12,359 nucleotides of DNA, from NCBI GenBank assembly GCA_937907055.1, contig CALCTW010000059.1, positions 1-12,359 of the forward strand. Reading direction: 5' to 3'. Of the stretch, positions 102-11,822 are shown one piece after another. The notes beneath the pieces are model-generated. The model was not told the origin of the DNA and did no database searches. It saw nothing but the letters and a program-made list of their open reading frames with translations. Every line of letters starts with the position of its first letter. Positions within the stretch are counted from its first letter, which is position 1. The position numbers and the translations under genes are program-made. The DNA is from an uncultured Clostridia bacterium (lineage in GTDB: Bacteria; Bacillota; Clostridia; Christensenellales; Aristaeellaceae).

Positions 102-1043
102 TTATTTCAGGGCTTCGGTCAGAACAAGCAGATTATACTGCATGGCGCGTTCGTAGCTGTCAGCGGCGCCGTCACCGGTTACGATGGGATCGAGCGTATA
201 GAGCGGAGCGCCGGTTTCGGCGCTGACCGTCTGCGCGGCTTTTCCGCTGTACTGAGGCTCTGTGAAAAGCGGCGGAAGCGGATCACGCGGATCCCCGTTT
301 TCATTAAGCATGATATCGCGGCACAGCTTCATCATACCGGCAGGAGCCAGAGGCTCTTCCGGCTCAAACGCGACAACAGCCACGATATGGAGACCGTAGG
401 CTTCGGCGAAATAGGGGAAGGCTTCGTGAAAGGTGACGATATCCTTGCGGGGCAGCGCTTCAATCGCCGCGCGCAGGGCAGCGTCCGTGGCTTCCAATAC
501 GGCAATATAGGCGTCCGCGTTTTCTTTCATCTGCCCAGCATACTGCGGATACAGCGCGCAAAGGCCGTCTGTCAGGTTTTCTACCATCCGGATGGCGTTT
601 CGCGGGTCAAGCCAGATGTGGGCGTTCCCTTCTTCATGGCCGTGTTCGTCAGTTTCCGGGTGCGTCTGTTCGTGATCGTGGTCATGCTCATCCTCCAGCA
701 GCGCGATGCCCCGGCTGCTGTCGATGATCACGAGCCCGGGCATCTCCCGGATCACCTTATCGAGATATCCCTCCATACCGGCCCCGTTGATCAGCAGCGC
801 GTCCGCGGTGTGCAGGGTCATCATATCACCGGTGAGCAGCTGATAGTCATGCAGACAGCCGGTGGACGGCGCGGTCAGGCAGACCGGTTGGATCGCGTCG
901 ATATCCTTCAGGATGTTTTTGGCGAAGATCCATACGGGATAAAAGGAGGCGGCAACGGTGTGTGTTTCTTCTGCCGTGACAGGAGCCGGAACAAAGCAAG
1001 GGAGCAGCAAAAGGCACAGCAGAGAGATCAGCGTTCGTTTCAT
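102..1043 (-). CDS. Cluster A-I (ZnuA/AdcA/TroA-like) metal ABC transporter substrate-binding protein with a His-rich loop
   Basis: 313-aa ORF with an N-terminal hydrophobic signal sequence (MKRTLISLLCLLLLPCF). It has conserved metal-ligand contexts LHDYQL, NAHIWLDP, TFHEAFPYF and LDPI. A His/Asp/Glu-rich insert (EDEHDHDHEQTHPETDEHGHEEGNAH) is typical of zinc-specific ZnuA. Stop is TAA. The start ATG overlaps the upstream gene's stop (ATGA at 1040-1043). Confidence 0.85.
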   Translation of the reverse strand: MKRTLISLLCLLLLPCFVPAPVTAEETHTVAASFYPVWIFAKNILKDIDAIQPVCLTAPSTGCLHDYQLLTGDMMTLHTADALLINGAGMEGYLDKVIREMPGLVIIDSSRGIALLEDEHDHDHEQTHPETDEHGHEEGNAHIWLDPRNAIRMVENLTDGLCALYPQYAGQMKENADAYIAVLEATDAALRAAIEALPRKDIVTFHEAFPYFAEAYGLHIVAVVAFEPEEPLAPAGMMKLCRDIMLNENGDPRDPLPPLFTEPQYSGKAAQTVSAETGAPLYTLDPIVTGDGAADSYERAMQYNLLVLTEALK

Positions 1044-2260
1044 TTCTTTTCGATTCCTTCGATCGCGGCGATACGCTGGGACAGCGTGGGATGTGAATAG
1101 GAAAGGATGACCAGAAGCGGAGAGGGGGAGAGGTCGGCGTAGTTTTCGCGGGAAAGCTTTTTCAGCGCGGCGATCAGCGCGTCACCATAGCCCTCTTCAG
1201 CAGCCTGACGATCGGCACGGTATTCATCTCTGCGGCTGAAATGGGAATTGAACAGTTCAACAAGCGGAGAAAGAAGAGCCATCTCGATCTCGGACATCAA
1301 CAGGATGCACAACCCGTAATTGACCGTTTCAAAGCCGAAAGCCTGAGAAATGGCCTCCGCGCGGGCTGTGAGTACAAGCAGCGCTGCCATCAGGATCATG
1401 GTCAGCGCGTTGCGGATCTGCATTTTGGGAATATCCTTGTGCAGACCGTGCCCCATCTCGTGCGCGAAAACAGCGCAGATCTCGTCAGGCGTCATGGACG
1501 CGACCAGCGTATCAAACAGTACGATCTCCTTGCTTTTGCCAAAGCCGGTGAAATAGGCGTTTGATTTTGTGGAGCGGCGTGACGCGTCCATCACTTTGAT
1601 GGACTTGACATGATAACCGTTTTTGCTCAGCAGCGCGGTCAGCTTTTCTTTCAGTTCGCCTTCTTCAAGCGGCGTGAATTTGTTGAAAATACGGTTGAGC
1701 AGGGGAGCCAGGAAGGACAGCAGCAACACGAACAGGATCAGACCGGCGGCCAGCGCGACGACAGCCAGATCTCCCAGCCCCATCACGAGCACATACAGGC
1801 AGCCCAGACCGCATGTGAAGATCAGACCGATGATGAACCCTTTGATCTGATCGCCGATGAAGGTCTTCATATTGCTCTTGTTAAAGCCGTATTTGGTTTC
1901 AACGCGGATCTCATCGAGATAACTGAAGGGGATCATCAACAGACTCGCGACTGTGCTGAGCAGCAGAACGGCGATGGTCTGCAGATAGGGATTCGCGCCG
2001 AAGAGACCGGCAAAGGCCGCGTAGGCATCGGTGCAGTACAGGATAAGGGCAATGAGCATGGAGGCTGTGGTGGAAATGAAACTGACGCGCGTTTTTTCGT
2101 GATGATACTTTTTCCAGTTCTCATAGGTGGCGGCGTCATAAACATCGCGCACATTATCGGGCGTTTTGTTTTTATCACTGGTATAGCTCAGATAATGCAG
2201 CAGCATCTGCCACAGGTAGACAACGATCAGCAGGCTGATCATGAGGATCTTCCAGTTCAT
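1040..2260 (-). CDS. M48 family (Ste24/HtpX-like) integral-membrane zinc metalloprotease
   Basis: Has the HEMGH zincin motif (FAHEMGHGLHKD), multiple hydrophobic TM segments in the N-terminal half, and a C-terminal SHPTLSQR typical of M48. Start is ambiguous. I favour the ATG at 2260 (MNWKIL..., AAAGGAA 6 nt upstream). ATG at 2284 and TTG at 2290 (ORF-track start) are in frame but sit in or against the thrS terminator U-tract. Stop is TGA. Confidence 0.85.
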   Translation of the reverse strand: MNWKILMISLLIVVYLWQMLLHYLSYTSDKNKTPDNVRDVYDAATYENWKKYHHEKTRVSFISTTASMLIALILYCTDAYAAFAGLFGANPYLQTIAVLLLSTVASLLMIPFSYLDEIRVETKYGFNKSNMKTFIGDQIKGFIIGLIFTCGLGCLYVLVMGLGDLAVVALAAGLILFVLLLSFLAPLLNRIFNKFTPLEEGELKEKLTALLSKNGYHVKSIKVMDASRRSTKSNAYFTGFGKSKEIVLFDTLVASMTPDEICAVFAHEMGHGLHKDIPKMQIRNALTMILMAALLVLTARAEAISQAFGFETVNYGLCILLMSEIEMALLSPLVELFNSHFSRRDEYRADRQAAEEGYGDALIAALKKLSRENYADLSPSPLLVILSYSHPTLSQRIAAIEGIEKK

Positions 2261-2288
2261 AGGCGTTCCTTTCAGAAAAGGCATTTTC

Positions 2289-2322
2289 AAAAACAGCCGC
2301 GGAGGAATGCCCGCCGCGGCTG
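2289..2322 (-). terminator. Rho-independent terminator downstream of thrS
   Basis: On the minus strand: CAGCCGCGG, an 11-nt loop, CCGCGGCTG (perfect 9 bp), then TTTTT. It begins 13 nt after the thrS stop. Confidence 0.8.
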
Positions 2323-2334
2323 CTGTATAGGTGA

Positions 2335-4119
2335 TTACTTACGGTTTTTGATCTCGCTCTGGATCTTTGCAGCGAATTCATCTACCGTCATGACGGTGGT
2401 GGAATCGGTGTCACGATCACGCACGGACAGCGTACCGTCCTGTACTTCCTTTTCACCGATGACCAGCATGTAGGGGACGCGGTCCTCTGTACGGGCGGCG
2501 CGGATCTTGTAGCCGATCTTTTCACTGCTCTCGTCCAGCTCGATGCGGACACCCAGATCGCTCAGCTTATCGGTGACCTCTCTGGCGTAATCCAGGCTCT
2601 TTTCGGAGACGGGCAGCGTCTTGACCTGCAGGGGAGCGAGCCAGACGGGGAACTTGCCCTTGGTCTCCTCGATCATGTAGGCCATGAAGCGGTCCAGACT
2701 GCCGAGGATGGCGCGGTGCAGAACAACGGGGGTCTTGGAAACGCCGTCCTTATCGATGTAGGTGAGCTGGAACTTGGCCGGCAGGCAGAAATCCAGCTGG
2801 CAGGTGGAAAGGGTGTACTCCGCGCCGACGGCGGGCTTCACATTCACGTCCAGCTTGGGGCCGTAGAAGGCGGCCTCGCCGATCTCCTCGGTGTATTCGA
2901 TGCCCAGTTCATTCAGCACTTCGCGCAGGGCGTTTTCCGCCTTGTTCCACATTTCATCATCCTGATGATACTTCTTGGTATCGGCAGGATCACGCAGGGA
3001 CAGCACGCAGCGGTAATCGGTGATGTTGAAATCCTGGTAAACATCCTTGATGAGGGCGACGACGGAAGCGACTTCGTCCTTGATCTGCTCCGGCGTGACG
3101 AACAGGTGAGCGTCGTTCTGGCAGAAGTGACGGCCGCGTTCGATGCCCTTCAGGGTGCCGCTGGCTTCAAAACGGAAGTCATGCGCGATCTCACCGATGC
3201 GCAGGGGCAGCTGACGGTAGGAACGGGGACGGTTGGCGAAGATCATCATGTGATGCGGGCAGTTCATGGGACGCAGCACGAAGCTTTCGCCTTCCACTTC
3301 CATGGCCGGGAACATGTTGTCCTTGTAATGATCCCAGTGACCGCTGGTCTTGTACAGATCCACAGAACCGACACAGGGGGTCATAACATGCTGATAGCCC
3401 AGCTTGCGTTCCTTTTCCTTGATGTAGTTCTCGAGTTCCTGCCAGATGGTGTAGCCCTTGGGCAGGAACATCGGCAGACCGCGGCCGATCAGGTTATCGG
3501 TCATGAACAGCTGCATTTCCTTGCCGATCTTGCGGTGATCGCGCTGACGGGCTTCTTCCATCTGCTTTTCGTATTCCACCAGTTCTTCCTTGGTGGCGAA
3601 GGCGATACCGTTGATACGGGTGAGCATTTTGTTTTCAGCGTTGTTCTTCCAGTAGGCGCCGGAGATGGCGGTCAGCTTGAAGGCCTTCAGCGCCTTGGTG
3701 TAGCACAGGTGGGGGCCGACGCACATATCGGTGTAATCGCCCTGCTGATAGAAGGTGAGCGTGGCATCCTCAGGCAGATCGCCGATATGCTCCACCTTGT
3801 AGATCTCGCCCTTTTCCTGCATCATCTTGATGGCCTCATCGCGGGAAAGCGCGTAGGGCTTGATGGGCAGGTTCTGCTTGACGATGTTCTGCATTTCCTT
3901 TTCGATGGCAGCCAGATCGTCATCAGTCAGCTTGACATCGCCCAGATCGATATCATAGTGGAAGCCTTTGTCGGTCGCGGGACCGTAGGCGAAATGAGCG
4001 TCGGGATACAGATGCTTCACAGCCTGCGCCAGAATGTGGGCGGCGCTGTGACGGATGACATGCAGTTCTTCTTCTGCAGGGCATTCCGCGGTCGTACCGT
4101 TGTTGTAGATGATCTTCAT
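2335..4119 (-). CDS. thrS: Threonine--tRNA ligase (class II aaRS), short-N-terminus form
   Basis: 594 aa. Editing-domain motifs are HSAAHILAQAV and DMCVGPH. Class II catalytic-core motifs include RPMNCPHH, FRFEASG and GPKLD, and the anticodon-binding C-terminus has PLQVKTLPV. GGAGGAGGA lies upstream of the ATG. A Thr-specific T-box leader precedes it. Stop is TAA. Confidence 0.95.
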   Translation of the reverse strand: MKIIYNNGTTAECPAEEELHVIRHSAAHILAQAVKHLYPDAHFAYGPATDKGFHYDIDLGDVKLTDDDLAAIEKEMQNIVKQNLPIKPYALSRDEAIKMMQEKGEIYKVEHIGDLPEDATLTFYQQGDYTDMCVGPHLCYTKALKAFKLTAISGAYWKNNAENKMLTRINGIAFATKEELVEYEKQMEEARQRDHRKIGKEMQLFMTDNLIGRGLPMFLPKGYTIWQELENYIKEKERKLGYQHVMTPCVGSVDLYKTSGHWDHYKDNMFPAMEVEGESFVLRPMNCPHHMMIFANRPRSYRQLPLRIGEIAHDFRFEASGTLKGIERGRHFCQNDAHLFVTPEQIKDEVASVVALIKDVYQDFNITDYRCVLSLRDPADTKKYHQDDEMWNKAENALREVLNELGIEYTEEIGEAAFYGPKLDVNVKPAVGAEYTLSTCQLDFCLPAKFQLTYIDKDGVSKTPVVLHRAILGSLDRFMAYMIEETKGKFPVWLAPLQVKTLPVSEKSLDYAREVTDKLSDLGVRIELDESSEKIGYKIRAARTEDRVPYMLVIGEKEVQDGTLSVRDRDTDSTTVMTVDEFAAKIQSEIKNRK

Positions 4120-4139
4120 GGTGATCCTCCTCCCTCACG

Positions 4140-4391
4140 GGTGTATTTGGTGGGGGTGAAACAGAAAAAGGCACTCGCCCCCGCGTGCTTGCGGGGACGA
4201 ATGCCGTATCATACGCGCATCCGCGGTTCCACCCTGCTTGTCTTCAGACCTCTTTCATCAGTGCTTTATCGGTCACCGGCCGGACCCGTCGGGAGGTGGT
4301 ACATGGATCTGCTCGCGGCGGGCGCTTTCAGCCTGGACGCCTGCTCTCTTGCGCTGCGTGGATCGATGCTTGTTCTCCGTCATTCGGAAAC
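4140..4391 (-). promoter_or_regulatory. T-box riboswitch leader (threonine, ACC specifier) controlling thrS
   Basis: On the minus strand the conserved T-box sequence AGGGTGGAACCGCGG is the complement of 4221-4235. Stem I elements are an AUGA/GA K-turn-like base, an AGAGAG bulge and a GGCUGAAAG distal loop. Hand folding places codon ACC (complement of 4298-4300), followed by A, on the 3' side of the specifier loop. A terminator follows. Confidence 0.85.
4165..4205 (-). terminator. T-box attenuator (intrinsic terminator) of the thrS leader
   Basis: On the minus strand: GGCATTCGTCCCCGC, loop AAGCAC, GCGGGGGCGAGTGCC (15 bp including two G-U pairs), followed by TTTTT. It sits immediately 3' of the T-box sequence, so alternative antiterminator pairing is possible. 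Confidence 0.85.
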
Positions 4392-4397
4392 AGCCCC

Positions 4398-4426
4398 ATT
4401 ATAAGCCTGTTTTCCCGGGATGTCAA
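4398..4426 (-). promoter_or_regulatory. Consensus sigma-A type promoter for the thrS leader
   Basis: On the minus strand: TTGACA (4426-4421), a 17-nt spacer, then TATAAT (4403-4398). Both hexamers match consensus perfectly. Confidence 0.8.
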
Positions 4427-4507
4427 CATATTGAAGCGTTGAAATCACAGAGAGCAAGGGGGAAAAACAAGGGGGAACGCGTTTATAAGGGAACAGGGGA
4501 AAAAGCG

Positions 4508-5530
4508 TTATCTGAGCAGCGGGAGCAGCTGATCGGCCAGCTTCTGATCACTGACCGGCGTGGGATGGAAATCCGGTACATAGCCGTCCTCTTTTAGCTG
4601 ATCGGCGACAGGCTGCGCCTGAACGCGAGGATCGCCGGTCTCGGACTGATAGCGCTCTACAGCCCTGACCATGCTGTCATTCAGACCGGTCCCCATCAAG
4701 CCCAGTACGCAGAGAATAGCGGCATCGGGATTGCGGCGGCGCACGGTCTTGAGGAACGCGACATAGCCGTCAATGTATTCCTGCTCTTTTTCCGGTTCGC
4801 CCTTTGTGTAGCTCAGGTCATTCGTGCCCAGATTGATGACGATCTGCTCAGGCTGAAAGAAGGAAAAATCCCATTCATAGTTGTTGACACGCTCATGCCC
4901 GGGAATGGGCTGATCGCAGAAGCCGACCTTTTCATAGCAATCGGGCACGAGGATCTGCGTATTCTTGACACCGTCACCGGTGTAGCCGCTCACGATGCCA
5001 AAGCCGCTGAAGCAGGTGAAGGCGGCGTCCGCGTCCAGTGCTTCGGCGAGACGGCCGGCGTAGGAACGGCGGACATCCTCGATGGCAGTGGAGTAGATCA
5101 TGCTGACATTGCCGTCAATGCCGTAGCCGCAGGTGATGCTGTCGCCGATGAACTCGATCGTGCGCTTCTTTTTTTCGGCGGGCCTGACTGTGCCGTCAAA
5201 ATCGCGCAGTTCCACCCCCAGATTGCTCTGGCTGGCCTCGCTGATCTTCATGACGGTGACCGCGCAGCCGCTGTCCGTGCCGAAGGGCAGGGGAATGACC
5301 TTTTCCGGGGTGTCCATCACATCGGTACAGATGGGATAGCCGTCCAGATACACGCAATACCGCGCGCGGTTATGTGTGGTGCTGTCAGGCTGAGAGGTAC
5401 GATCACCATGCAGCACGATCGTGCCTTTGGTGCAATGTTCACAGGTGAAATCCACCCGGCTGCCTGAAGAAGACAGCCAGATGATCTCATCAAAAATGAT
5501 ATGTCGTCCCAAAATCTTGACAGGGAACAT
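4508..5530 (-). CDS. SGNH/GDSL-family hydrolase with an N-terminal beta-sandwich-like domain (CE2-like carbohydrate esterase architecture)
   Basis: Block I is FIGDSITCGYG, block III is NLGTNDL, and the C-terminal block V-like motif is DFHPT. About 130 aa of non-catalytic N-terminal domain precede these. I chose the start at ATG 5530 (MFPVKIL) because GGAGG lies 8 nt upstream. The longer ORF-track start (5578) would overlap the upstream gene. Stop is TAA. Confidence 0.8.
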   Translation of the reverse strand: MFPVKILGRHIIFDEIIWLSSSGSRVDFTCEHCTKGTIVLHGDRTSQPDSTTHNRARYCVYLDGYPICTDVMDTPEKVIPLPFGTDSGCAVTVMKISEASQSNLGVELRDFDGTVRPAEKKKRTIEFIGDSITCGYGIDGNVSMIYSTAIEDVRRSYAGRLAEALDADAAFTCFSGFGIVSGYTGDGVKNTQILVPDCYEKVGFCDQPIPGHERVNNYEWDFSFFQPEQIVINLGTNDLSYTKGEPEKEQEYIDGYVAFLKTVRRRNPDAAILCVLGLMGTGLNDSMVRAVERYQSETGDPRVQAQPVADQLKEDGYVPDFHPTPVSDQKLADQLLPLLR

Positions 5531-5549
5531 AGGGTTGTCCTCCGTTGAT

Positions 5550-6872
5550 TTATTCGATGGTGAAGCAGCCGTCGGCATCCGTCTTCACACAGGCGGCATA
5601 GAAGGCTTCCATGGCGTCTGCCATGTGCTTCACATCCGCGCAGCCCGCGGATTCGTAGGAAGAGTGCATGGCCAGCTGCGCGGCGCCGATATCCACGGTG
5701 TTCATGGAGACATGAGCGTTGGCGATATTGCCCAGCGTGGAACCGCCGGGGAGGTCACTGTGGTTGTGGAAGTGCTGTACCGGCACACCGGCATTGGCGC
5801 AGACGGTCTCGAATACAGCAGAGGAAGCGCCGTCGGTGGTGTATTTCTGATTGGCGTTATGCTTGATGACAACACCGCGGTTCATATAGGTGCGGTTGTC
5901 GGCATCGAACTTCTCGGGGTGGTTGGGGTGCAGGGCATGCGCGTTGTCGGCGGAAAGCATGAAGGAAGCGCTGATCATGGCGCGGGCTTTGGACAGGGAA
6001 TTGCCCAGATCCTCGGCGATGCGCAGCATGGTATCCTGCAGGAAGGTGCTGTCCGCGCCCTGCTTGGAGCGGCTGCCCACTTCTTCGTTATCAAACACGG
6101 CGCAGATGTTGATCTGCTTTTTGGGATGAGAACTGATGATCGCTTCCACAGAGGTGTAGGCGCATTCAAGGTCATCGATACGGCCGCAGCTGAAGAACTG
6201 ATCTTCCGCGCCCCACACCGTGCCGGGAACACGGCCGTAGAGGAACAGATCGCTTCCGGCGATCTCATCAACAGAGCAGCCGGCCTTTGCCGCAATCTGC
6301 TGATTCAGCTTGCCGGCATCCGTGTTATCACCAAACAGGGGCAGCAGATCGGTCTGCGGCTTGAAGGCATAGCCGCTGTTGCATTCACGGTTGAAGTGGA
6401 TCGGCATATTGGGGATCACGCAGGCATCGCGGTCCAGATCAACAAGCTTCGCGGTGATCTTTTCACCCTGACGGATGAATACGCGGCCGGCGATACCCAG
6501 CGGACGATCCAGCCAGGTGGACATGATCATGCCGCCGTAGGGCTCTACATTCAGACGGCAATAAGCTCCGAGCGCCTGCTGTTCGCACTTCTGCTTCAGC
6601 TTGAAGACGGGAGAATCGGTGTGGGAGGCGACGATCTGGAAATGATCCGCCGGACCTTCCGGGATCTCAAACGCGATGACGGAGGAAAGGTTGCGGGTGA
6701 TGTACCAGCGGCCCGCGGTCAGCCTGACGTTATCATTTTCGTTTACACGGCTGAAACCGGCTTTTTCAAGCTTTTCGCAAATGGCATTGACCGCGTGAAA
6801 AGCGGTGGGGGAATTTTTGACGAAATCGATAAAACCATTGACAGAGGCGACGTTGGAAAGCTGTTCGCTCAT
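5550..6872 (-). CDS. M18 family aminopeptidase (aspartyl aminopeptidase-like)
   Basis: 440 aa with an N-terminal FIDFVKNSPTAFHAV and SHTDSPVFKLK. Downstream metal-ligand contexts (FDNEEVGS, GSTLG, DIGAAQLAMHS) are characteristic of M18 peptidases. AGGAG lies upstream. Stop is TAA. Confidence 0.85.
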   Translation of the reverse strand: MSEQLSNVASVNGFIDFVKNSPTAFHAVNAICEKLEKAGFSRVNENDNVRLTAGRWYITRNLSSVIAFEIPEGPADHFQIVASHTDSPVFKLKQKCEQQALGAYCRLNVEPYGGMIMSTWLDRPLGIAGRVFIRQGEKITAKLVDLDRDACVIPNMPIHFNRECNSGYAFKPQTDLLPLFGDNTDAGKLNQQIAAKAGCSVDEIAGSDLFLYGRVPGTVWGAEDQFFSCGRIDDLECAYTSVEAIISSHPKKQINICAVFDNEEVGSRSKQGADSTFLQDTMLRIAEDLGNSLSKARAMISASFMLSADNAHALHPNHPEKFDADNRTYMNRGVVIKHNANQKYTTDGASSAVFETVCANAGVPVQHFHNHSDLPGGSTLGNIANAHVSMNTVDIGAAQLAMHSSYESAGCADVKHMADAMEAFYAACVKTDADGCFTIE

Positions 6873-6906
6873 GGGGAGAATACTCCTTTCAAAGGTTGTT
6901 TGATGT

Positions 6907-6935
6907 ATTATAGCATGAAAAGCATGATCGGGAAA
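6907..6935 (-). promoter_or_regulatory. Candidate extended -10 promoter for the M18 aminopeptidase/SGNH esterase pair
   Basis: On the minus strand: TGCTATAAT (extended -10, TATAAT = complement of 6907-6912), with a weak -35 TTTCCC 17 nt upstream. It lies about 35 nt upstream of the start codon. Confidence 0.4.
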
Positions 6936-7026
6936 GCATGGAATTGAGGATGAACGGAGCGATCTTTCGCGGATGAACTGTCAGAACGAAAAGCAGTGTA
7001 AGATACGGCTGATGACAGGCGCGGCA

Positions 7027-7494
7027 TCATTCTGCCAGTGCCTTCAGCGTATCGCCTGCCAGACGATAGACCGTCCAGTCCGACATGGGTTCCGCGCCAA
7101 GGGAAAGATAAAAATCGATACTGGGCTTGTTCCAGTCAAGGCACCACCATTCCAGACGGCCGCAGCCGCGTTCGACCGCGATGCGGGCCAGCGTGCGGAT
7201 CAATCCCTTTCCGTAGCCCTTTCCCCGGAACTCCGGTCTGACATAGAGATCCTCCAGATAAAGCCCGGCTCTTCCAAGGAAGGTGGAGAAATTATGGAAG
7301 AACAGGGCGAACCCGACTTCCTTTCCGTCTTCCAGCGCGAAAATGACCTCAGCCTTCTGTTTTTCAAAGATCCAGTGGCATAATGTGGCTTCATCCGCCA
7401 CCACCTGATCCGCCATTTTTTCATAGGCGGCCAGTTCGCGGATGAAGGAGAGGATCAGAGCGGTGTCTTTTTCCGTGGCAAATCTGTATTCCAT
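7027..7494 (-). CDS. GNAT family N-acetyltransferase (diamine/spermidine acetyltransferase-like)
   Basis: 155 aa with the acetyl-CoA binding motif RPEFRGKGYGKGL and an overall GNAT fold pattern. GGAGGA lies 8 nt upstream of the ATG. Stop is TGA. Confidence 0.85.
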   Translation of the reverse strand: MEYRFATEKDTALILSFIRELAAYEKMADQVVADEATLCHWIFEKQKAEVIFALEDGKEVGFALFFHNFSTFLGRAGLYLEDLYVRPEFRGKGYGKGLIRTLARIAVERGCGRLEWWCLDWNKPSIDFYLSLGAEPMSDWTVYRLAGDTLKALAE

Positions 7495-7601
7495 TCCGGA
7501 TATCCTCCTGTTTGCTGATCAGCCGGGACAGCCCGGACGGGGAACGACCAAAGTCTGCTGCCGGACGCGTGAAAATGTATCCGGAATGCTGAACCTGTAT
7601 T

Positions 7602-7630
7602 ATTCTATGATAGATCCGGGAGCGTGTAAA
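7602..7630 (-). promoter_or_regulatory. Candidate promoter for the GNAT gene
   Basis: On the minus strand: TTTACA (7630-7625), a 17-nt spacer, then TAGAAT (7607-7602). This implies a 5' UTR of about 100 nt. Confidence 0.45.
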
Positions 7631-7711
7631 GCGAAAATACCGGTGAAAGCGGCGGAAAAACGGGCATTTACGCGCTGCCCGCGCGAAATGAGGCGGAAAT
7701 CACGATAAATC

Positions 7712-7740
7712 TTGATTAATGATGAAAGTTCCTTTATAAT
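7712..7740 (+). promoter_or_regulatory. Promoter of the stand-alone tRNA(CUA) gene
   Basis: TTGATT (7712-7717), a 17-nt spacer, then TATAAT (7735-7740). This predicts a leader of about 50 nt before the mature tRNA 5' end. Confidence 0.65.
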
Positions 7741-7797
7741 AAATATGGAAATGACGGAAAAGGGCGATGTTCGCTCTTCTTTCATCGTTTCAGCTGC

Positions 7798-7873
7798 CGC
7801 CCCATCCTCTAGCGGTCCAGGAGAGAGGTCTCTAAAACCTTGAACATCGGTTCGAATCCGATTGGGGTGACCA
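7798..7873 (+). tRNA. tRNA with anticodon CUA (amber/UAG-reading, suppressor-type) and a tRNA-Glu/Gln-like body
   Basis: Hand-folded cloverleaf: acceptor CGCCCCA/TGGGGTG (7 bp, one G-U), U8, and D-stem CTCT/GGAG. The D-loop is AGCGGTCCA (A14, G18G19, A21). The anticodon stem is GAGGT/ACCTT and the loop is C-T-CTA-A-A (U33, anticodon 7832-7834, A37). The variable loop is 4 nt (GAAC). The T-arm is ATCGG-TTCGAAT-CCGAT, with discriminator A and an encoded CCA. Total length is 76 nt, with its own promoter and terminator. Confidence 0.85.
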
Positions 7874-7879
7874 ACCCGG

Positions 7880-7906
7880 CCCTCTGACATCTGTCAGGGG
7901 GCTTTT
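7880..7906 (+). terminator. Rho-independent terminator after tRNA(CUA)
   Basis: CCCTCTGAC, loop ATCT, GTCAGGGGG (9 bp including one G-U), then CTTTT. It starts 7 nt after the tRNA CCA. Confidence 0.75.
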
Positions 7907-7965
7907 GATATGGGATGAGGCCGGACGGAGTGGAACGGCAGCGCTGTACTTTGGCGGAATTGTGA

Positions 7966-7994
7966 TTGAGAATTGGCAGGGAGTATGCTATACT
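7966..7994 (+). promoter_or_regulatory. Candidate promoter for the GH43 gene
   Basis: TTGAGA (7966-7971), a 17-nt spacer, then TATACT (7989-7994), about 50 nt upstream of the start codon. Confidence 0.35.
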
Positions 7995-8047
7995 GTATGC
8001 GAATCGGACAACTGAACCCGGAATGATAAGCATAGGAGGATAATACA

Positions 8048-9478
8048 ATGAAACCGTTTATTCATGGCGCAAACCCTTATATGCCGCTTTGGGAGCATGT
8101 GCCGGACGGCGAACCGCGTGTGTTTGAACACAATGGCGAAAAGCGTGTGTATGTTTATGGATCGCACGATATCGCGAAGACACGTTATTGCGGAGATAAC
8201 TATGTGGTGTGGTCTGCTCCGGTGACAGATCTGACCAGCTGGACCTATCACGGTGTTGCTTATGAGGCGCATTATGATTCCATGCTGTTTGCCCCGGATG
8301 TGGTGAAAAAGGGAGACACCTATTATATGTACGCCGCCGAAAACTGCGGCAGCCTGATCGTTGTTGCCTCTTCAAAAACACCCTGGGGACCTTTTGAAAA
8401 CCCCGTGGAAACCAGACTGGGCTTCGACCCCGGTGTGCTGGTGGATGACGACGGCCGGGCCTACGCGTACTGGGGCGGCTGCGCCGCGCCCTGCTACATC
8501 GCCGAGCTGGAAGAGGATATGGCGACCATCAAGGAGGAAACGCTCGTCAGCAATCCGATGGGTCACTCCACCTGCCCGTGGGATCCGAAGGATGACGGTC
8601 ACATCGATCTGCTGGATGGTTTCTTTGAGGCCTCCAGCCCGCGCAAGGTGATGGGCAAGTATGTGTATATTTTCTCCAGACGTTATGAAAAGCCCATCCC
8701 GGAACTGGGTGTGTACGGGCCGTGCAACGGCTTCCTTTCCTACAAGTTTTCCGATACGCCCTTCGGCCCCTTCCGTGACGGCGGCGATATCAGTTTTAAC
8801 GGCGGCGAGATCCTCCGGATGGCGGACGGCACCGGTACCATGACCTATCGTTGGGGCAACAATCACGGCTCGATCATGGAGGTCAACGGCCAGTGGTATG
8901 TGTTCTATCATCGTCATACCGGTGATACCGAATACTCCCGCCAGGCGATGCTGGAGCCTGTGGATGTCGCCATGGGTCAGGACGGCCGTCTGTATATCGG
9001 CGATATCAGGTATATTGCCGGGGAGCCTGTTTCCTCCGGCGTGGTGGAGATGACCTCGCAGGGCGCGCATATCAACGGTCTTGACGCTTACAAATGGATC
9101 TCGGCCGGTTATGCCTGCCATCTTTACGGCAGCAGGCTTCATGCTTATGTGCAGCCGGTCTATGAGCAGGATGATGATATCTCCAGCCCGATCGTCAATA
9201 TCACCGGCGGAACGACTGTCGGATTCCGCTATCTTCAGTTCGGCGCGAACAGACCGATGACTGTTACCGCGGTGCTGGGGGAGGCTGTGAACTGTAGGGT
9301 GAATGTGCGAATCGACAGCTTCAATGGCCGTATCGTTTCCACCCTGATTTGCAGTGAAAACAGCGCGGAGACGACGGCTCCCGTCAATGCCAGTGTGATC
9401 GGCAAGCACGCAGTCTACTTTGAGTTTGTGTGCGAAGAAGGTCAGAGCGTGATTTTTGACCGGTTCACATTTGACTGA
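8048..9478 (+). CDS. Glycoside hydrolase family 43 protein (beta-xylosidase/alpha-L-arabinofuranosidase-type) with a C-terminal beta-sandwich (CBM-like) domain
   Basis: 476 aa. The N-terminus NPYMPLWEHVPDGEPRVFE...RVYVYGSHD is typical of GH43 five-bladed propeller enzymes, as are FAPDVVKKGDTYYMY and DPGVLVDDDGRAYAYWG. The C-terminal ~130 aa (GFRYLQFG...FDRFTF) looks like a galactose-binding-like module. AGGAGGA lies upstream. Stop is TGA. Confidence 0.8.
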   Translation: MKPFIHGANPYMPLWEHVPDGEPRVFEHNGEKRVYVYGSHDIAKTRYCGDNYVVWSAPVTDLTSWTYHGVAYEAHYDSMLFAPDVVKKGDTYYMYAAENCGSLIVVASSKTPWGPFENPVETRLGFDPGVLVDDDGRAYAYWGGCAAPCYIAELEEDMATIKEETLVSNPMGHSTCPWDPKDDGHIDLLDGFFEASSPRKVMGKYVYIFSRRYEKPIPELGVYGPCNGFLSYKFSDTPFGPFRDGGDISFNGGEILRMADGTGTMTYRWGNNHGSIMEVNGQWYVFYHRHTGDTEYSRQAMLEPVDVAMGQDGRLYIGDIRYIAGEPVSSGVVEMTSQGAHINGLDAYKWISAGYACHLYGSRLHAYVQPVYEQDDDISSPIVNITGGTTVGFRYLQFGANRPMTVTAVLGEAVNCRVNVRIDSFNGRIVSTLICSENSAETTAPVNASVIGKHAVYFEFVCEEGQSVIFDRFTFD

Positions 9479-9638
9479 TCCGTAAGGAGAAAATCCGGTG
9501 CTGGATTCATTGGAAGGTTTTGCGATCAAAAAGAAGAAAAAACAGTGAGCACGGAAGCATTCAGCCGCCTTTGGACCGTATATTCTGAGCTGTTCTCGCA
9601 GAGAGTGCAAAGAAATTAAAATTTATTTTTAAAAACAC

Positions 9639-9667
9639 TTGCATTTCTCTTTAAGGTGTGGTATATT
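9639..9667 (+). promoter_or_regulatory. Promoter of tRNA-Arg with an extended -10 and an A/T-rich UP-like element
   Basis: TTGCAT (9639-9644), a 17-nt spacer ending TGG, then TATATT (9662-9667). It is preceded by an A/T-rich tract (aaagaaattaaaatttatttttaaaaa, about 9609-9635). Confidence 0.65.
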
Positions 9668-9695
9668 GATTGAGCTGTCCGAGAGAACAGCGTAT

Positions 9696-9772
9696 GCGCC
9701 CTTAGCTCAGCTGGATAGAGTGTTTGACTACGAATCAAAAGGTCGAGGGTTCGAATCCCCCAGGGCGCGCCA
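9696..9772 (+). tRNA. tRNA-Arg (anticodon ACG)
   Basis: Acceptor GCGCCCT/AGGGCGC, D-arm GCTC-AGCTGGATA-GAGT, and anticodon arm TTTGA-CTACGAA-TCAAA (anticodon ACG). The variable loop is AGGTC. The T-arm is GAGGG-TTCGAAT-CCCCC, with one A-C mismatch at 50:64. Discriminator is G and CCA is encoded. It closely resembles bacterial tRNA-Arg(ACG). Confidence 0.9.
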
Positions 9773-9773
9773 T

Positions 9774-9806
9774 GAAGAAGGAGTAGATTCGGCTCCTTCT
9801 TTTTTT
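9774..9806 (+). terminator. Rho-independent terminator after tRNA-Arg
   Basis: GAAGAAGGAG, a 9-nt loop, CTCCTTCTTT, then a T-run to 9806. It begins 2 nt after the CCA. Confidence 0.8.
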
Positions 9807-9877
9807 GTATTTCAGGATATGTATAAGCACGGATCACGGAAAACCGCATGATACCAGGGTGTGTTTATGATGCTTTC

Positions 9878-9969: not shown

Positions 9970-10377
9970 ATGAGAGAGACCTACCGCACCCGTCAGTGGG
10001 AGGAACTGCGCCTCATCCTGGAGCAAACACCGGGCATGCATTACACCGCCGCGCAGATCCATGAACGGATGGCACAGCAAGGACAGAAGATCGGCCTGGC
10101 GACGATCTACCGTCATCTGGATCGAATGGTGGCCGATGGTGTGGTGCGGAGGTACCAGTTGGAAACCGGTGACGGGGCATGTTATGAATACGTAGGACAG
10201 CATGTGGAATGCAGCACACACTTCCACTGCAAGTGTGAGCAGTGCGGCAGACTGATCCATCTGGATTGTGATGAACTGCATGGCATTCAGGAGCATATCC
10301 GGGAGCATCACGGCTTCACCTGTAATACGGGAAAAACAGTTTTTTACGGGATCTGCGATCAGTGCCGACAGGCCTGA
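9970..10377 (+). CDS. zur: Fur family transcriptional repressor, most likely the zinc uptake regulator Zur
   Basis: 135 aa. It has a winged-helix N-terminus (GLATIYRHLDRMVADGVV), a His-rich regulatory-site region (HFHCKCEQCGRLIHLDCDELHGIQEHIREHH), and two CxxC pairs (CEQC, CDQC) for the structural Zn site. It is the first gene of a znuA/znuC-containing operon, preceded by palindromic boxes. The Zur versus Fur/PerR assignment is by context only. AAGGAG lies 7 nt upstream. Confidence 0.75.
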   Translation: MRETYRTRQWEELRLILEQTPGMHYTAAQIHERMAQQGQKIGLATIYRHLDRMVADGVVRRYQLETGDGACYEYVGQHVECSTHFHCKCEQCGRLIHLDCDELHGIQEHIREHHGFTCNTGKTVFYGICDQCRQA

Positions 10378-10720: not shown

Positions 10721-10862
10721 CTGAATATCATAACAGGGTTTTTTCAGCATACCTATACGGATGTTTTTGCCGTTCGGCAGGAGCGGCGTTTCGTATTATG
10801 CAGGAGAAGCCTTGTTTTTTTGCACCTGTATTCAGATAAACAATTGAGATTTGGAGGAAATG

Positions 10863-11822
10863 ATGATGAAAAAGTTCTTTGCCATTATGATGGCGCTGAT
10901 TATGATGATGACCATGCTGATGGGTGTTACCGCTGCCGCGCAGAGCAAAAAGATCAGCGTGGTGACGACTGTTTTTCCCATTTATGACTGGGTGCGTGAG
11001 GTCGTGGGCGACAACGCAAATGTCGAAATGACGCTGCTGCTGGACAAGGGCGTTGACCTGCACAGCTTCCAGCCCACCGCGCAGGACATCATGAAGGTCG
11101 CCACGGCGGATGTGTTTATCTATGTGGGCGGTGAGTCTGACGAGTGGGTTGAGGACGCGCTGACCGAGGCTGTGAATACGAATATGAAGGTTATCAGCCT
11201 GCTGGAGGCTCTGGGTGATGCCGTGAAGGAAGAAGAACTTGTAGAGGGTATGGAAGGCGAAGAAGAGGAAGAAGCCGGGGAAGAGGAGGAAGCAGAATAC
11301 GACGAGCATGTCTGGCTCTCGCTGCGTAACGCTCAGGCGTTGACACAGGCTATCGCCGACACGCTGGCCGAGGCCGATCCCGACAATGCCGCTGCCTATC
11401 AGGCCAACGCCGCCGCTTACATCGAGAAGCTGGCTGCGCTGGACGCTCAGTACGCCGACATGGTTGCCCGGGCCGAGTACAAGACTGTGCTGTTCGGCGA
11501 CCGTTTTCCCTTCCGCTATCTGGTGGATGACTATGATCTGACCTACTATGCTGCCTTTGCGGGCTGCTCTGCCGAGACCGAGGCCAGCTTTGAGACCATC
11601 GTGTTCCTGGCCCAGAAGGTGGACGAGCTGAGCCTGTCCGCCGTGCTGACCATCGAGGGCATCAATCACCGCATTGCGGAGACCATCGTCGGCGCTACCG
11701 CTGCCAAGGATCAGAAGATCCTGACCGTGGACTCCCTGCAGGGCAAGCCTGCGAACGACGCGACTTATCTGTCCGTGATGGAAGCCAACCTGTCTGTTCT
11801 GCGTGATGCGCTGAATAAGTAA
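10863..11822 (+). CDS. Cluster A-I (ZnuA-like) metal ABC transporter substrate-binding protein with a poly-Glu acidic loop
   Basis: Signal peptide is MKKFFAIMMALIMMMTMLMGVTAAAQS, with no Cys. Conserved contexts are VDLHSFQP, DEHVWLSLRNA and TVDSL. The acidic insert is EEELVEGMEGEEEEEAGEEEEAEYDEH. Three consecutive ATGs (10860, 10863, 10866) follow GGAGG (10853-10857). The ORF-track TTG at 10851 overlaps the SD and is unlikely. Stop is TAA. Confidence 0.8.
   Translation: MMKKFFAIMMALIMMMTMLMGVTAAAQSKKISVVTTVFPIYDWVREVVGDNANVEMTLLLDKGVDLHSFQPTAQDIMKVATADVFIYVGGESDEWVEDALTEAVNTNMKVISLLEALGDAVKEEELVEGMEGEEEEEAGEEEEAEYDEHVWLSLRNAQALTQAIADTLAEADPDNAAAYQANAAAYIEKLAALDAQYADMVARAEYKTVLFGDRFPFRYLVDDYDLTYYAAFAGCSAETEASFETIVFLAQKVDELSLSAVLTIEGINHRIAETIVGATAAKDQKILTVDSLQGKPANDATYLSVMEANLSVLRDALNK

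Follow-up and report, generated by a model that had tools for sequence, protein, structure and literature searches.

Why should a bacterial chromosome carry an intact transfer RNA (tRNA) gene whose anticodon, CUA, pairs with the stop codon UAG? The question is raised by a 12,359-nt stretch of DNA from an uncultured Clostridia bacterium of the Aristaeellaceae (NCBI GCA_937907055.1, contig CALCTW010000059.1), here called the window, to which the coordinates below refer (+ strand unless stated). The original prediction was that this gene, tRNA(CUA), is stand-alone, independently transcribed and fully canonical. We conclude, from sequence comparisons throughout, that tRNA(CUA) is probably a working chromosomal UAG decoder that serves host genes. 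The gene is made up of the following parts.

7712–7740, +, sigma-70-like promoter of the tRNA gene, TTGATT-17-TATAAT (consensus scan, 10 of 12 matches)
7741–7797, +, presumed 5′ leader of the precursor tRNA, which RNase P would remove, placed by its position between the −10 box and base 1 of the tRNA
7798–7873, +, tRNA(CUA), a class-I elongator tRNA with a Glu-type body and encoded CCA; anticodon CTA at 7832–7834 (ARAGORN, Rfam)
7878–7907, +, intrinsic terminator, a GC-rich hairpin of 11 bp (7878–7903) followed by TTTT (terminator scan)

ARAGORN calls a 76-nt tRNA with the anticodon CTA at 7798–7873, as the original prediction expected; the label 'Pyl' that it attaches is merely its name for a CUA anticodon. 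The Rfam tRNA family RF00005 spans 7798–7870 and is matched over the full model (53.5 bits against a gathering score of 29, E 2e-9), and no non-canonical pairs are flagged in the alignment. The acceptor stem of 7 bp (CGCCCCA/UGGGGUG) consists of C1-G72, G2·U71 and five Watson-Crick pairs. The D-stem (CUCU/GGAG: C10-G25, U11-A24, C12-G23, U13·G22) closes a 9-nt loop, AGCGGUCCA, that includes GG (G18G19), and the 5-bp anticodon stem (GAGGU/ACCUU) carries the loop CUCUAAA with U33, CUA and A37. The variable loop is GAAC (4 nt), the T-arm is AUCGG-UUCGAAU-CCGAU, and the 3′ end is A73 plus an encoded CCA. The universal nucleotides are all present (U8, A14, G18G19, U33, purine 37, the T-loop UUCGAAU and the 3′ CCA), and with stems of 7, 4, 5 and 5 bp and a score over the curated threshold this is a canonical elongator tRNA. 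Each structural statement of the original prediction therefore holds, and neither a covariance-model pseudogene call nor a different anticodon emerged. A promoter and an intrinsic terminator of its own, both predicted from sequence, likewise agree with a stand-alone, independently transcribed gene. The Rfam scan found no further family overlapping tRNA(CUA), and none in the 5′ leader (7741–7797) at E<0.1.

The same species is represented by a second strain, L038 (NCBI GCA_045628485.1, contig JAZQPK010000196.1), which carries both tRNA(CUA) and the tRNA-Arg that follows it in the window, and which is 98.2% identical to window positions 1288–9811 (8.5 kb). Six single-nucleotide polymorphisms separate the two in the 231 nt around tRNA(CUA), and all lie outside the tRNA, the two promoter hexamers and the stem of the terminator, which are 100% identical. 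Further assemblies of the species were found by cluster look-up, namely a 132-kb ENA contig (ERZ27247138:k141_559527), 20.7 kb of which is referred to as L045, and a third sample, L047. The sequence sampled amounts to ~45 kb of the window species and 16 kb of a second carrier lineage described below, all near the tRNAs.

Beyond window position 9811 the strains part company. The window has Zur, ZnuA and ZnuC genes, whereas L038, L045 and L047 have a TAG-containing set of helix-turn-helix, response-regulator and histidine-kinase genes. In L038 this segment follows the tRNA-Arg, lies ~3.7 kb from tRNA(CUA), and comprises an XRE-type helix-turn-helix gene, a response-regulator gene and a histidine-kinase gene, the last overlapping the response-regulator gene by 4 nt. 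In the annotation the kinase is a protein of 335 amino acids (aa) ending at TAG, whereas its frame runs on through this TAG and a second one 11 codons later to codon 412, a TAA, and a strong intrinsic terminator follows at a distance of 3 nt. When the TAGs are masked, a HATPase_c domain is found with 55.5 bits that covers profile positions 1–105 of 111 and spans both TAGs, whereas the truncated 335-aa call (P0243) gives a HisKA score only. In a gapless alignment, two uninterrupted orthologues of 411 aa (P0241 and P0242, 83% and 81% identical) carry CAG (Gln) at the positions of both TAGs, and in more distant homologues the first site is Glu and the second is Glu or Pro. Since the operon of response regulator, histidine kinase and Cthe_2159 is conserved around the orthologues, the kinase TAGs arose in place.

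The part of the kinase beyond the first TAG is, on the pattern of substitutions, under purifying selection. The ratio of non-synonymous to synonymous substitution rates (dN/dS) is 0.095 and 0.035 after the first TAG, compared with 0.149 and 0.110 before it. Changes past the first TAG that are confined to the L038 branch comprise 12 synonymous and 2 non-synonymous ones, beside ratios of 5:1 and 13:1 in the intact orthologues and of ~1:3.3 at neutrality. The L038 kinase breaks just one of the 88 columns that are invariant in 11 homologues, as do its orthologues.

The XRE gene shows a similar arrangement. It 'ends' with TAG at codon 98, after which 33 protein-like codons lead to a TGA, for a total of 131 aa, and plasmid-borne XRE homologues of ~130 aa (129 aa) align over the TAG; the deposited annotations give 335 aa for the kinase and 97 aa for the XRE protein. 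All three TAGs (two in the kinase, one in the XRE gene) and both open reading frame (ORF) lengths are kept in L038, L045 and L047, which are assemblies 2.3% apart. In the 20.7 kb of L045, 2 of 18 gene calls end with TAG; these are the kinase and the XRE gene, and there are no others.

The second carrier lineage has TAGs in a different kinase gene. It comprises L002 (JAZRWA01) and L005 (JAKSQG01), two other Clostridia species whose stand-alone tRNA(CUA) genes are identical to each other and 72–74% identical to that of the window. In L002 a kinase gene 0.8 kb from its tRNA(CUA) contains three in-frame TAGs, and a single frame takes in the transmembrane region, HisKA and HATPase_c (99.6 bits). 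The kinase core aligns with solved kinases in one alignment that is continuous over the third TAG; the residues opposite the TAGs (H, S and D) say nothing about the residue inserted, and this alignment was set aside for that purpose. L002 (1–700) and L005 (5928–6833) share a gene for a small membrane protein beside tRNA(CUA) (MAKHYRRKPKYVKPKERTF...), and the other flank differs, with response-regulator and histidine-kinase genes in L002 and a helicase-like protein of 944 aa in L005.

The six premature stops in three genes of two lineages are thus without exception TAG; neither frameshifts nor TAA or TGA occur. All six in-frame TAGs are followed by a purine, and a purine after UAG favours suppression in E. 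coli. They amount to three TAGs in 2 of ~33 genes of the window species and three in 1 of ~10 genes of the L002/L005 lineage (~60 kb in total, all near the tRNAs), a sense usage of ~3 per 10,000 codons. The bacterium appears, from these conserved reading frames, to use UAG as an amino-acid codon, and we infer that this tRNA is the decoder of the in-frame TAGs.

Where does such a tRNA come from? A pattern combining a Glu-type D-arm with the anticodon loop CUCUAAA was scanned against 185,579 species, one genome per species, and matched at five loci only. Apart from L002 and L005, the remaining three matches lie beside other tRNA genes (in dense arrays in two) or in a genome of the Candidate Phyla Radiation (CPR). 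Elsewhere the same pattern is found in one IMG/VR viral contig, as a distant match, and in 25 metagenome contigs. Most of the metagenome matches sit in dense tRNA arrays on low-GC contigs, and several of these contigs reach a high coding density only when TAG is read as sense instead of stop (L009, 0.10 to 0.80; L011, 0.08 to 0.38; L029, 0.55 to 0.83; L006, 0.61 to 0.80). By this measure the latter belong with the TAG-recoded phages reported in bioRxiv 10.1101/2021.08.26.457843. The nearest relative of the window tRNA is in L028 (~81% identity, 0.81), in a five-tRNA array of 37% GC, and the second closest is in L024 (0.78), which was considered as a further bacterial carrier and rejected, being a phage-like locus with small unknown ORFs. 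The best matches among GenBank phages are tRNA-Glu genes of Streptomyces phages (~79%), and a window-specific pattern found no near-identical copy among 2.9 M viral contigs (IMG/VR). Across 11 related tRNA(CUA) genes, 17 of the 21 cloverleaf pairs show compensatory changes; the fold is, by this covariation, evolutionarily maintained and no chance fold.

Several other matches and features were noted in these searches. Suppressor tRNAs of two kinds, CUA and UUA ('Stop-tta'), lie in the L026 array (tRNA at 2842–2914 and its neighbours), which points to an element where TAA is read as well as TAG. Of 11 members of the tRNA(CUA) family, 6 have G·U as the 1-72 pair, which may be an identity feature. 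L020 and L031 were set aside as unrelated, since they combine tandem tRNA-Gln(CTG) arrays with 90% identical tRNA(CUA) in eukaryote-type sequence; protists with TAG as a Gln codon are the probable source of such matches. Also set aside were L007, L014, L015, L019, L021 and L025, which have a distinct stand-alone tRNA(CUA), come from moss or peat metagenomes and are unrelated to the window.

The amino acid delivered by tRNA(CUA) would be Gln or Glu, and there are indications for each. The closest non-CUA isotype among all the tRNAs compared is tRNA-Glu, and the tRNA has the tRNA-Glu augmented D-helix (U11-A24, U13·G22 with A46, and position 47 missing in the 4-nt variable loop), which bears out the Glu-like core of the original prediction. 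These three features are identity elements for the E. coli GluRS. Bacterial tRNA-Gln is marked by a weak 1-72 pair (U1-A72), by G73, by a variable loop of 5 nt and by a D-arm of its own type. tRNA(CUA) differs in each respect, with C1-G72, with A73, with 4 nt in the variable loop and with the D-arm of tRNA-Glu; its anticodon, CUA, is not the YUC of tRNA-Glu. The body typical of GluRS substrates, the absence of U1-A72 and G73, and the Glu found at both kinase sites in more distant homologues speak for Glu. For Gln there is the CAG at both kinase sites in the two closest orthologues, together with the reports that recoded phages read TAG as Gln and that amber suppressors are glutaminylated because GlnRS reads C34-U35 (bioRxiv 10.1101/2021.08.26.457843). 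Within the arrays, tRNA(CUA) resembles the co-resident tRNA-Glu (identity 0.63–0.71 in four of five arrays and 0.52 in the fifth), unlike the tRNA-Gln(UUG) of the same arrays. The suppressor tRNA(CUA) genes of the phage-like arrays L001, L004, L009, L011, L012, L018, L022, L026, L028 and L030 have a tRNA-Glu-type body, although TAG is taken to be Gln in such phages.

These observations can be assembled into the following scheme. The tRNA(CUA) would be transcribed alone from its own promoter and processed to a 76-nt tRNA with its encoded CCA, and then charged by a host synthetase, most likely GluRS through the Glu-type augmented D-helix, or else GlnRS through C34-U35. On the ribosome, CUA would pair with UAG and insert Gln or Glu, so that host genes with in-frame TAGs – the sensor histidine kinase with two and the XRE-type regulator with one – would be translated to full length. 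Historically, TAG terminators would already have been rare when the chromosome captured a suppressor tRNA of phage type and this became fixed; a phage-type ancestry of tRNA(CUA) is probable from its relatives. Subsequent CAG→TAG changes would then have been neutral in weakly expressed regulators, or useful in tying their expression to the tRNA. The lineage looks to be at an early, partial or ambiguous stage of UAG reassignment. A stronger version, in which UAG has been reassigned to Gln or Glu genome-wide in the window species and independently in L002/L005, through a fixed phage-type Glu-bodied suppressor and with release factor 1 (RF1) lost or weakened, is possible but doubtful. The original prediction had listed four implications of a chromosomal UAG decoder. 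Two of these, TAG readthrough or recoding and dedicated readthrough of specific genes, gain direct sequence support from the conserved in-frame TAGs, in host genes and in two lineages.

A number of observations weigh against a decoder in use by the host. The stop-codon census had to be abandoned as evidence for recoding: there are no genuine TAG terminators among ~25 genes of the window species, but related Clostridia contigs without the tRNA (L032, L034, L035 and L039) avoid TAG as well, with 2 of 55 terminators, and three of these contigs have 0 of 43. The rarity of TAG terminators is thus a background of the lineage, which should make an amber suppressor cheap to acquire. None of the sampled housekeeping genes (ThrRS, M18, M48 and others) contains TAG, and the TAG-bearing genes are all regulators. 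By mutation alone, TAG is expected for 42–56% of nonsense hits in these genes; the statistic that all premature stops are TAG (5 of 5 in two kinase genes, p ~0.03) is therefore weak and was not relied upon. Gln codons are overwhelmingly CAG (94, compared with 3 CAA), so that CAG→TAG is the expected nonsense route, and the authors of Codetta caution about pseudogene artefacts arising from this very change. The N:S ratio of the L038 kinase branch is slightly higher (0.42) than those of the orthologues (0.25 and 0.32), and the XRE extension differs between strains at 3 of 33 residues as compared with 3 of 97 upstream. There is also a mismatch of identity, in that a Glu-type body with C1-G72 and A73 faces TAG sites that are Gln in the closest orthologues. 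Finally, the evidence is limited to the ~45 kb and 16 kb sampled.

The genomic surroundings of tRNA(CUA) bear on these questions, and the other features of the window are as follows.

102–1043, −, ZnuA (Pfam)
1040–2290, −, M48 peptidase (Pfam)
2335–4119, −, ThrRS (Pfam)
4508–5578, −, SGNH hydrolase (Pfam)
5550–6872, −, M18 aminopeptidase (Pfam)
7027–7494, −, GNAT (Pfam)
8048–9478, +, GH43 (Pfam)
9696–9772, +, tRNA-Arg(ACG) (ARAGORN, Rfam)
9696–9811, +, tRNA-Arg(ACG) plus 39 nt, the variable junction (integration site) at whose end the homology between window and L038 stops
9970–10377, +, Zur (Pfam)
10851–11822, +, ZnuA, second copy (Pfam)
from 11883, +, ZnuC (Pfam)

There are no phage genes and no biosynthetic genes among the Pfam-assigned neighbours of tRNA(CUA) in the window, and the Pfam annotations of the window, L038 and L045 include no pyl genes (pylS or pylBCD). 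With ThrRS, M48, M18, GNAT, GH43 and Zur/ZnuA/ZnuC as neighbours, tRNA(CUA) sits among housekeeping and accessory chromosomal genes, outside any prophage, and the chromosomal context originally proposed stands. By name, the homologues of the GH43 gene point to Lachnospiraceae and those of the M18 gene to Clostridia or 'Ca. Ventricola'. The next-best M18 orthologue is merely 65% identical, which indicates that the lineage is sparsely sampled; exact-protein records were not found for GNAT or for either ZnuA copy, and that for Zur was found solely on a 1.3-kb contig.

The junction at the tRNA-Arg, which corresponds to L038 positions 4273–4388, looks like an integration (att) site to judge from the sequences on either side, and lies 1.8 kb from tRNA(CUA). 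The contig of L042 begins exactly at window position 9772. In L045 the junction is occupied by an element with glycosyltransferases, CotH, an ABC exporter and TnpV, and a partial 3′ repeat of the tRNA-Arg (L045 8798–8882, corresponding to window 9725–9809) adjoins TnpV after the inserted element; there are no in-frame TAGs in this element. Since the junction is att-like, the Zur/Znu block of the window may itself be an island. ZnuA-family genes are present at both ends of the window (102–1043, −, and 10851–11822, +), both with acidic or His-rich inserts, and the right-hand copy (10851–11822) is grouped with Zur and ZnuC. The GH43/CBM6 gene (8048–9478, +) behaves as a mobile cassette, and one orthologue adjoins a TraG-like conjugation gene. 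This gene was tried as a synteny anchor for the tRNA site and rejected, as its orthologues (79–87%) lie in unrelated neighbourhoods and the homology ends at the ORF edges. The leader of the ThrRS gene (4190–4392, −) aligns with the Rfam T-box model from end to end (1–219) but with 34.7 bits (E 3e-6), well under the gathering score of 93; it is, by this full-length match, a divergent T-box that would escape standard annotation.

Could the tRNA instead be a phage-derived passenger, a relic of a code change without a role in the host, and the kinase and XRE genes recent pseudogenes produced by CAG→TAG? We regard this as unlikely, while allowing it some weight. The closest relatives of the tRNA lie in low-GC arrays of TAG-recoded phage-like contigs, CAG→TAG is the likeliest nonsense route given 94 CAG to 3 CAA, housekeeping genes are free of TAG, and a very recent inactivation would be invisible to pairwise dN/dS. 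Chance inactivation nevertheless sits poorly with six premature stops in three genes of two lineages that are all TAG, unaccompanied by frameshifts, TAA or TGA, and with three TAGs that are kept, with downstream frames intact, in three assemblies 2.3% apart. The excess of synonymous over non-synonymous changes past the first kinase TAG (12 to 2, with ~1:3.3 at neutrality) argues in the same direction, and a mere passenger would hardly be expected to have its tRNA, promoter and terminator perfectly conserved while the flanks vary, with no phage genes nearby and no near-identical copy in 2.9 M viral contigs. A related proposal, to which we give little chance, is that tRNA(CUA) chiefly serves a TAG-recoded prophage, phage or mobile element, for example as a copy resident in the host that allows late genes to be translated, or as one that such phages exploit, and that the host puts up with its own TAGs as a by-product. 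Among the gut phages of Firmicutes, phage-borne suppressor tRNAs and TAG→Gln recoding are widespread, and TAG-recoded prophages occur in Oscillospiraceae (bioRxiv 10.1101/2021.08.26.457843); this type of tRNA is common to such elements, and an integration site for mobile elements lies at the tRNA-Arg, 1.8 kb away. Yet no recoded phage genes are present in the ~45 kb of the species examined, the element at the tRNA-Arg of L045 lacks in-frame TAGs, and tRNA(CUA) is on the conserved backbone side of the junction with a constitutive-looking promoter of its own. Selection should also oppose a host gene that benefits a lytic phage.

That UAG encodes pyrrolysine or another non-canonical residue, or that tRNA(CUA) has a non-translational role as an aminoacyl donor for secondary metabolism or a regulatory tRNA-like RNA, is highly improbable. 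The tRNA-Pyl label given by ARAGORN is due to the CUA anticodon, and there are known non-ribosomal uses of Glu-tRNA. In tRNA-Pyl the anticodon stem has 6 bp and the variable loop 3 nt, the D-loop is small and lacks G18G19, and the T-loop is atypical. tRNA(CUA) shows none of these hallmarks: its D-loop has 9 nt and includes G18G19, its anticodon stem has 5 bp and its T-loop is of the TΨC type. Its TAG sites match Gln or Glu of the orthologues, not known Pyl sites. The pyrrolysine reading is ruled out by this architecture together with the residues at the TAG sites. No pyl or biosynthetic genes are found among the neighbours, and a non-translational role leaves the in-frame TAGs unexplained.

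A host-serving decoder of UAG would thus make this locus a natural chromosomal amber suppressor with dependent host genes, and possibly an incipient bacterial UAG reassignment. Text searches of the literature found no published bacterial chromosome that uses TAG as Gln or Glu with its own tRNA. According to the Codetta paper every known bacterial change reassigns UGA, and a 2026 screen of ~2.7 M assemblies lists no TAG reassignment. Recoding of UAG to Gln is regarded as a strategy of phages whose hosts keep the standard code. The accepted bacterial stop reassignments being all of UGA, a resident UAG decoder with host genes in need of it would add a new class; if it extended genome-wide, it would be the first natural bacterial amber reassignment to a canonical amino acid, at an early stage and in a small fraction of genes. 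It would also be a living intermediate of the 'ambiguous intermediate / rare-stop capture' route, and TAG-recoded phages would find such a host permissive or would have helped to shape it. On the practical side, a systematic mis-annotation would be exposed, the kinase (335 aa) and the XRE protein (97 aa) having been deposited as truncated, and a natural Firmicutes amber-suppressor tRNA would be on offer for genetic-code engineering.

The closest parallel among known systems is provided by the code-15 gut phages (crAss-like, Lak, Garnet, Topaz and others; bioRxiv 10.1101/2021.08.26.457843; PMC9523058), which like the present system have a tRNA(CUA) and an inferred reading of UAG as Gln. The Glu-like body is shared with arrays on contigs that need TAG as sense, and the logic proposed for these phages, from rare TAG stops through gain of a suppressor to in-frame TAGs, is the same (bioRxiv 10.1101/2021.08.26.457843). 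In contrast to these phages, we find here a single, independently transcribed gene among chromosomal housekeeping genes, the in-frame TAGs lie in regulatory genes of the host, within operons that relatives also possess, and the best phage-like relative of the window tRNA is ~80% identical; the hosts of recoded phages have been described as using the standard code (bioRxiv 10.1101/2021.08.26.457843). The bacterial reassignments of UGA to Trp (Mycoplasmatales and others) and to Gly (Absconditabacteria/Gracilibacteria) are alike in having a chromosomal cognate tRNA and a former stop codon in frame, but differ in that the codon is UGA and not UAG, and usage here is sparse. In E. coli supE (glnV44) and in RF1-deleted E. 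coli (PMC3001078, PMC4434889) a canonical CUA tRNA inserts Gln at UAG, in competition with RF1; supE, however, is a laboratory mutant of a resident tRNA-Gln, whereas the present gene is natural, conserved and Glu-bodied, with natural in-frame TAG genes. The Pyl system resembles this one in its CUA anticodon, its in-frame UAG in a few specific genes and its rare TAG terminators, and differs in that the tRNA here is canonical, no pyl genes were seen in the sequences named above, the sites are Gln or Glu sites, and the clients are kinases and a regulator, not methylamine methyltransferases. The bldA gene of Streptomyces, with its TTA-containing regulators, offers a possible analogy, in which one tRNA gates a small set of rare-codon regulators, and raises the question of whether expression of the regulators described here depends on the suppressor tRNA by a bldA-like logic. 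Unlike tRNA(CUA), bldA reads a sense codon.

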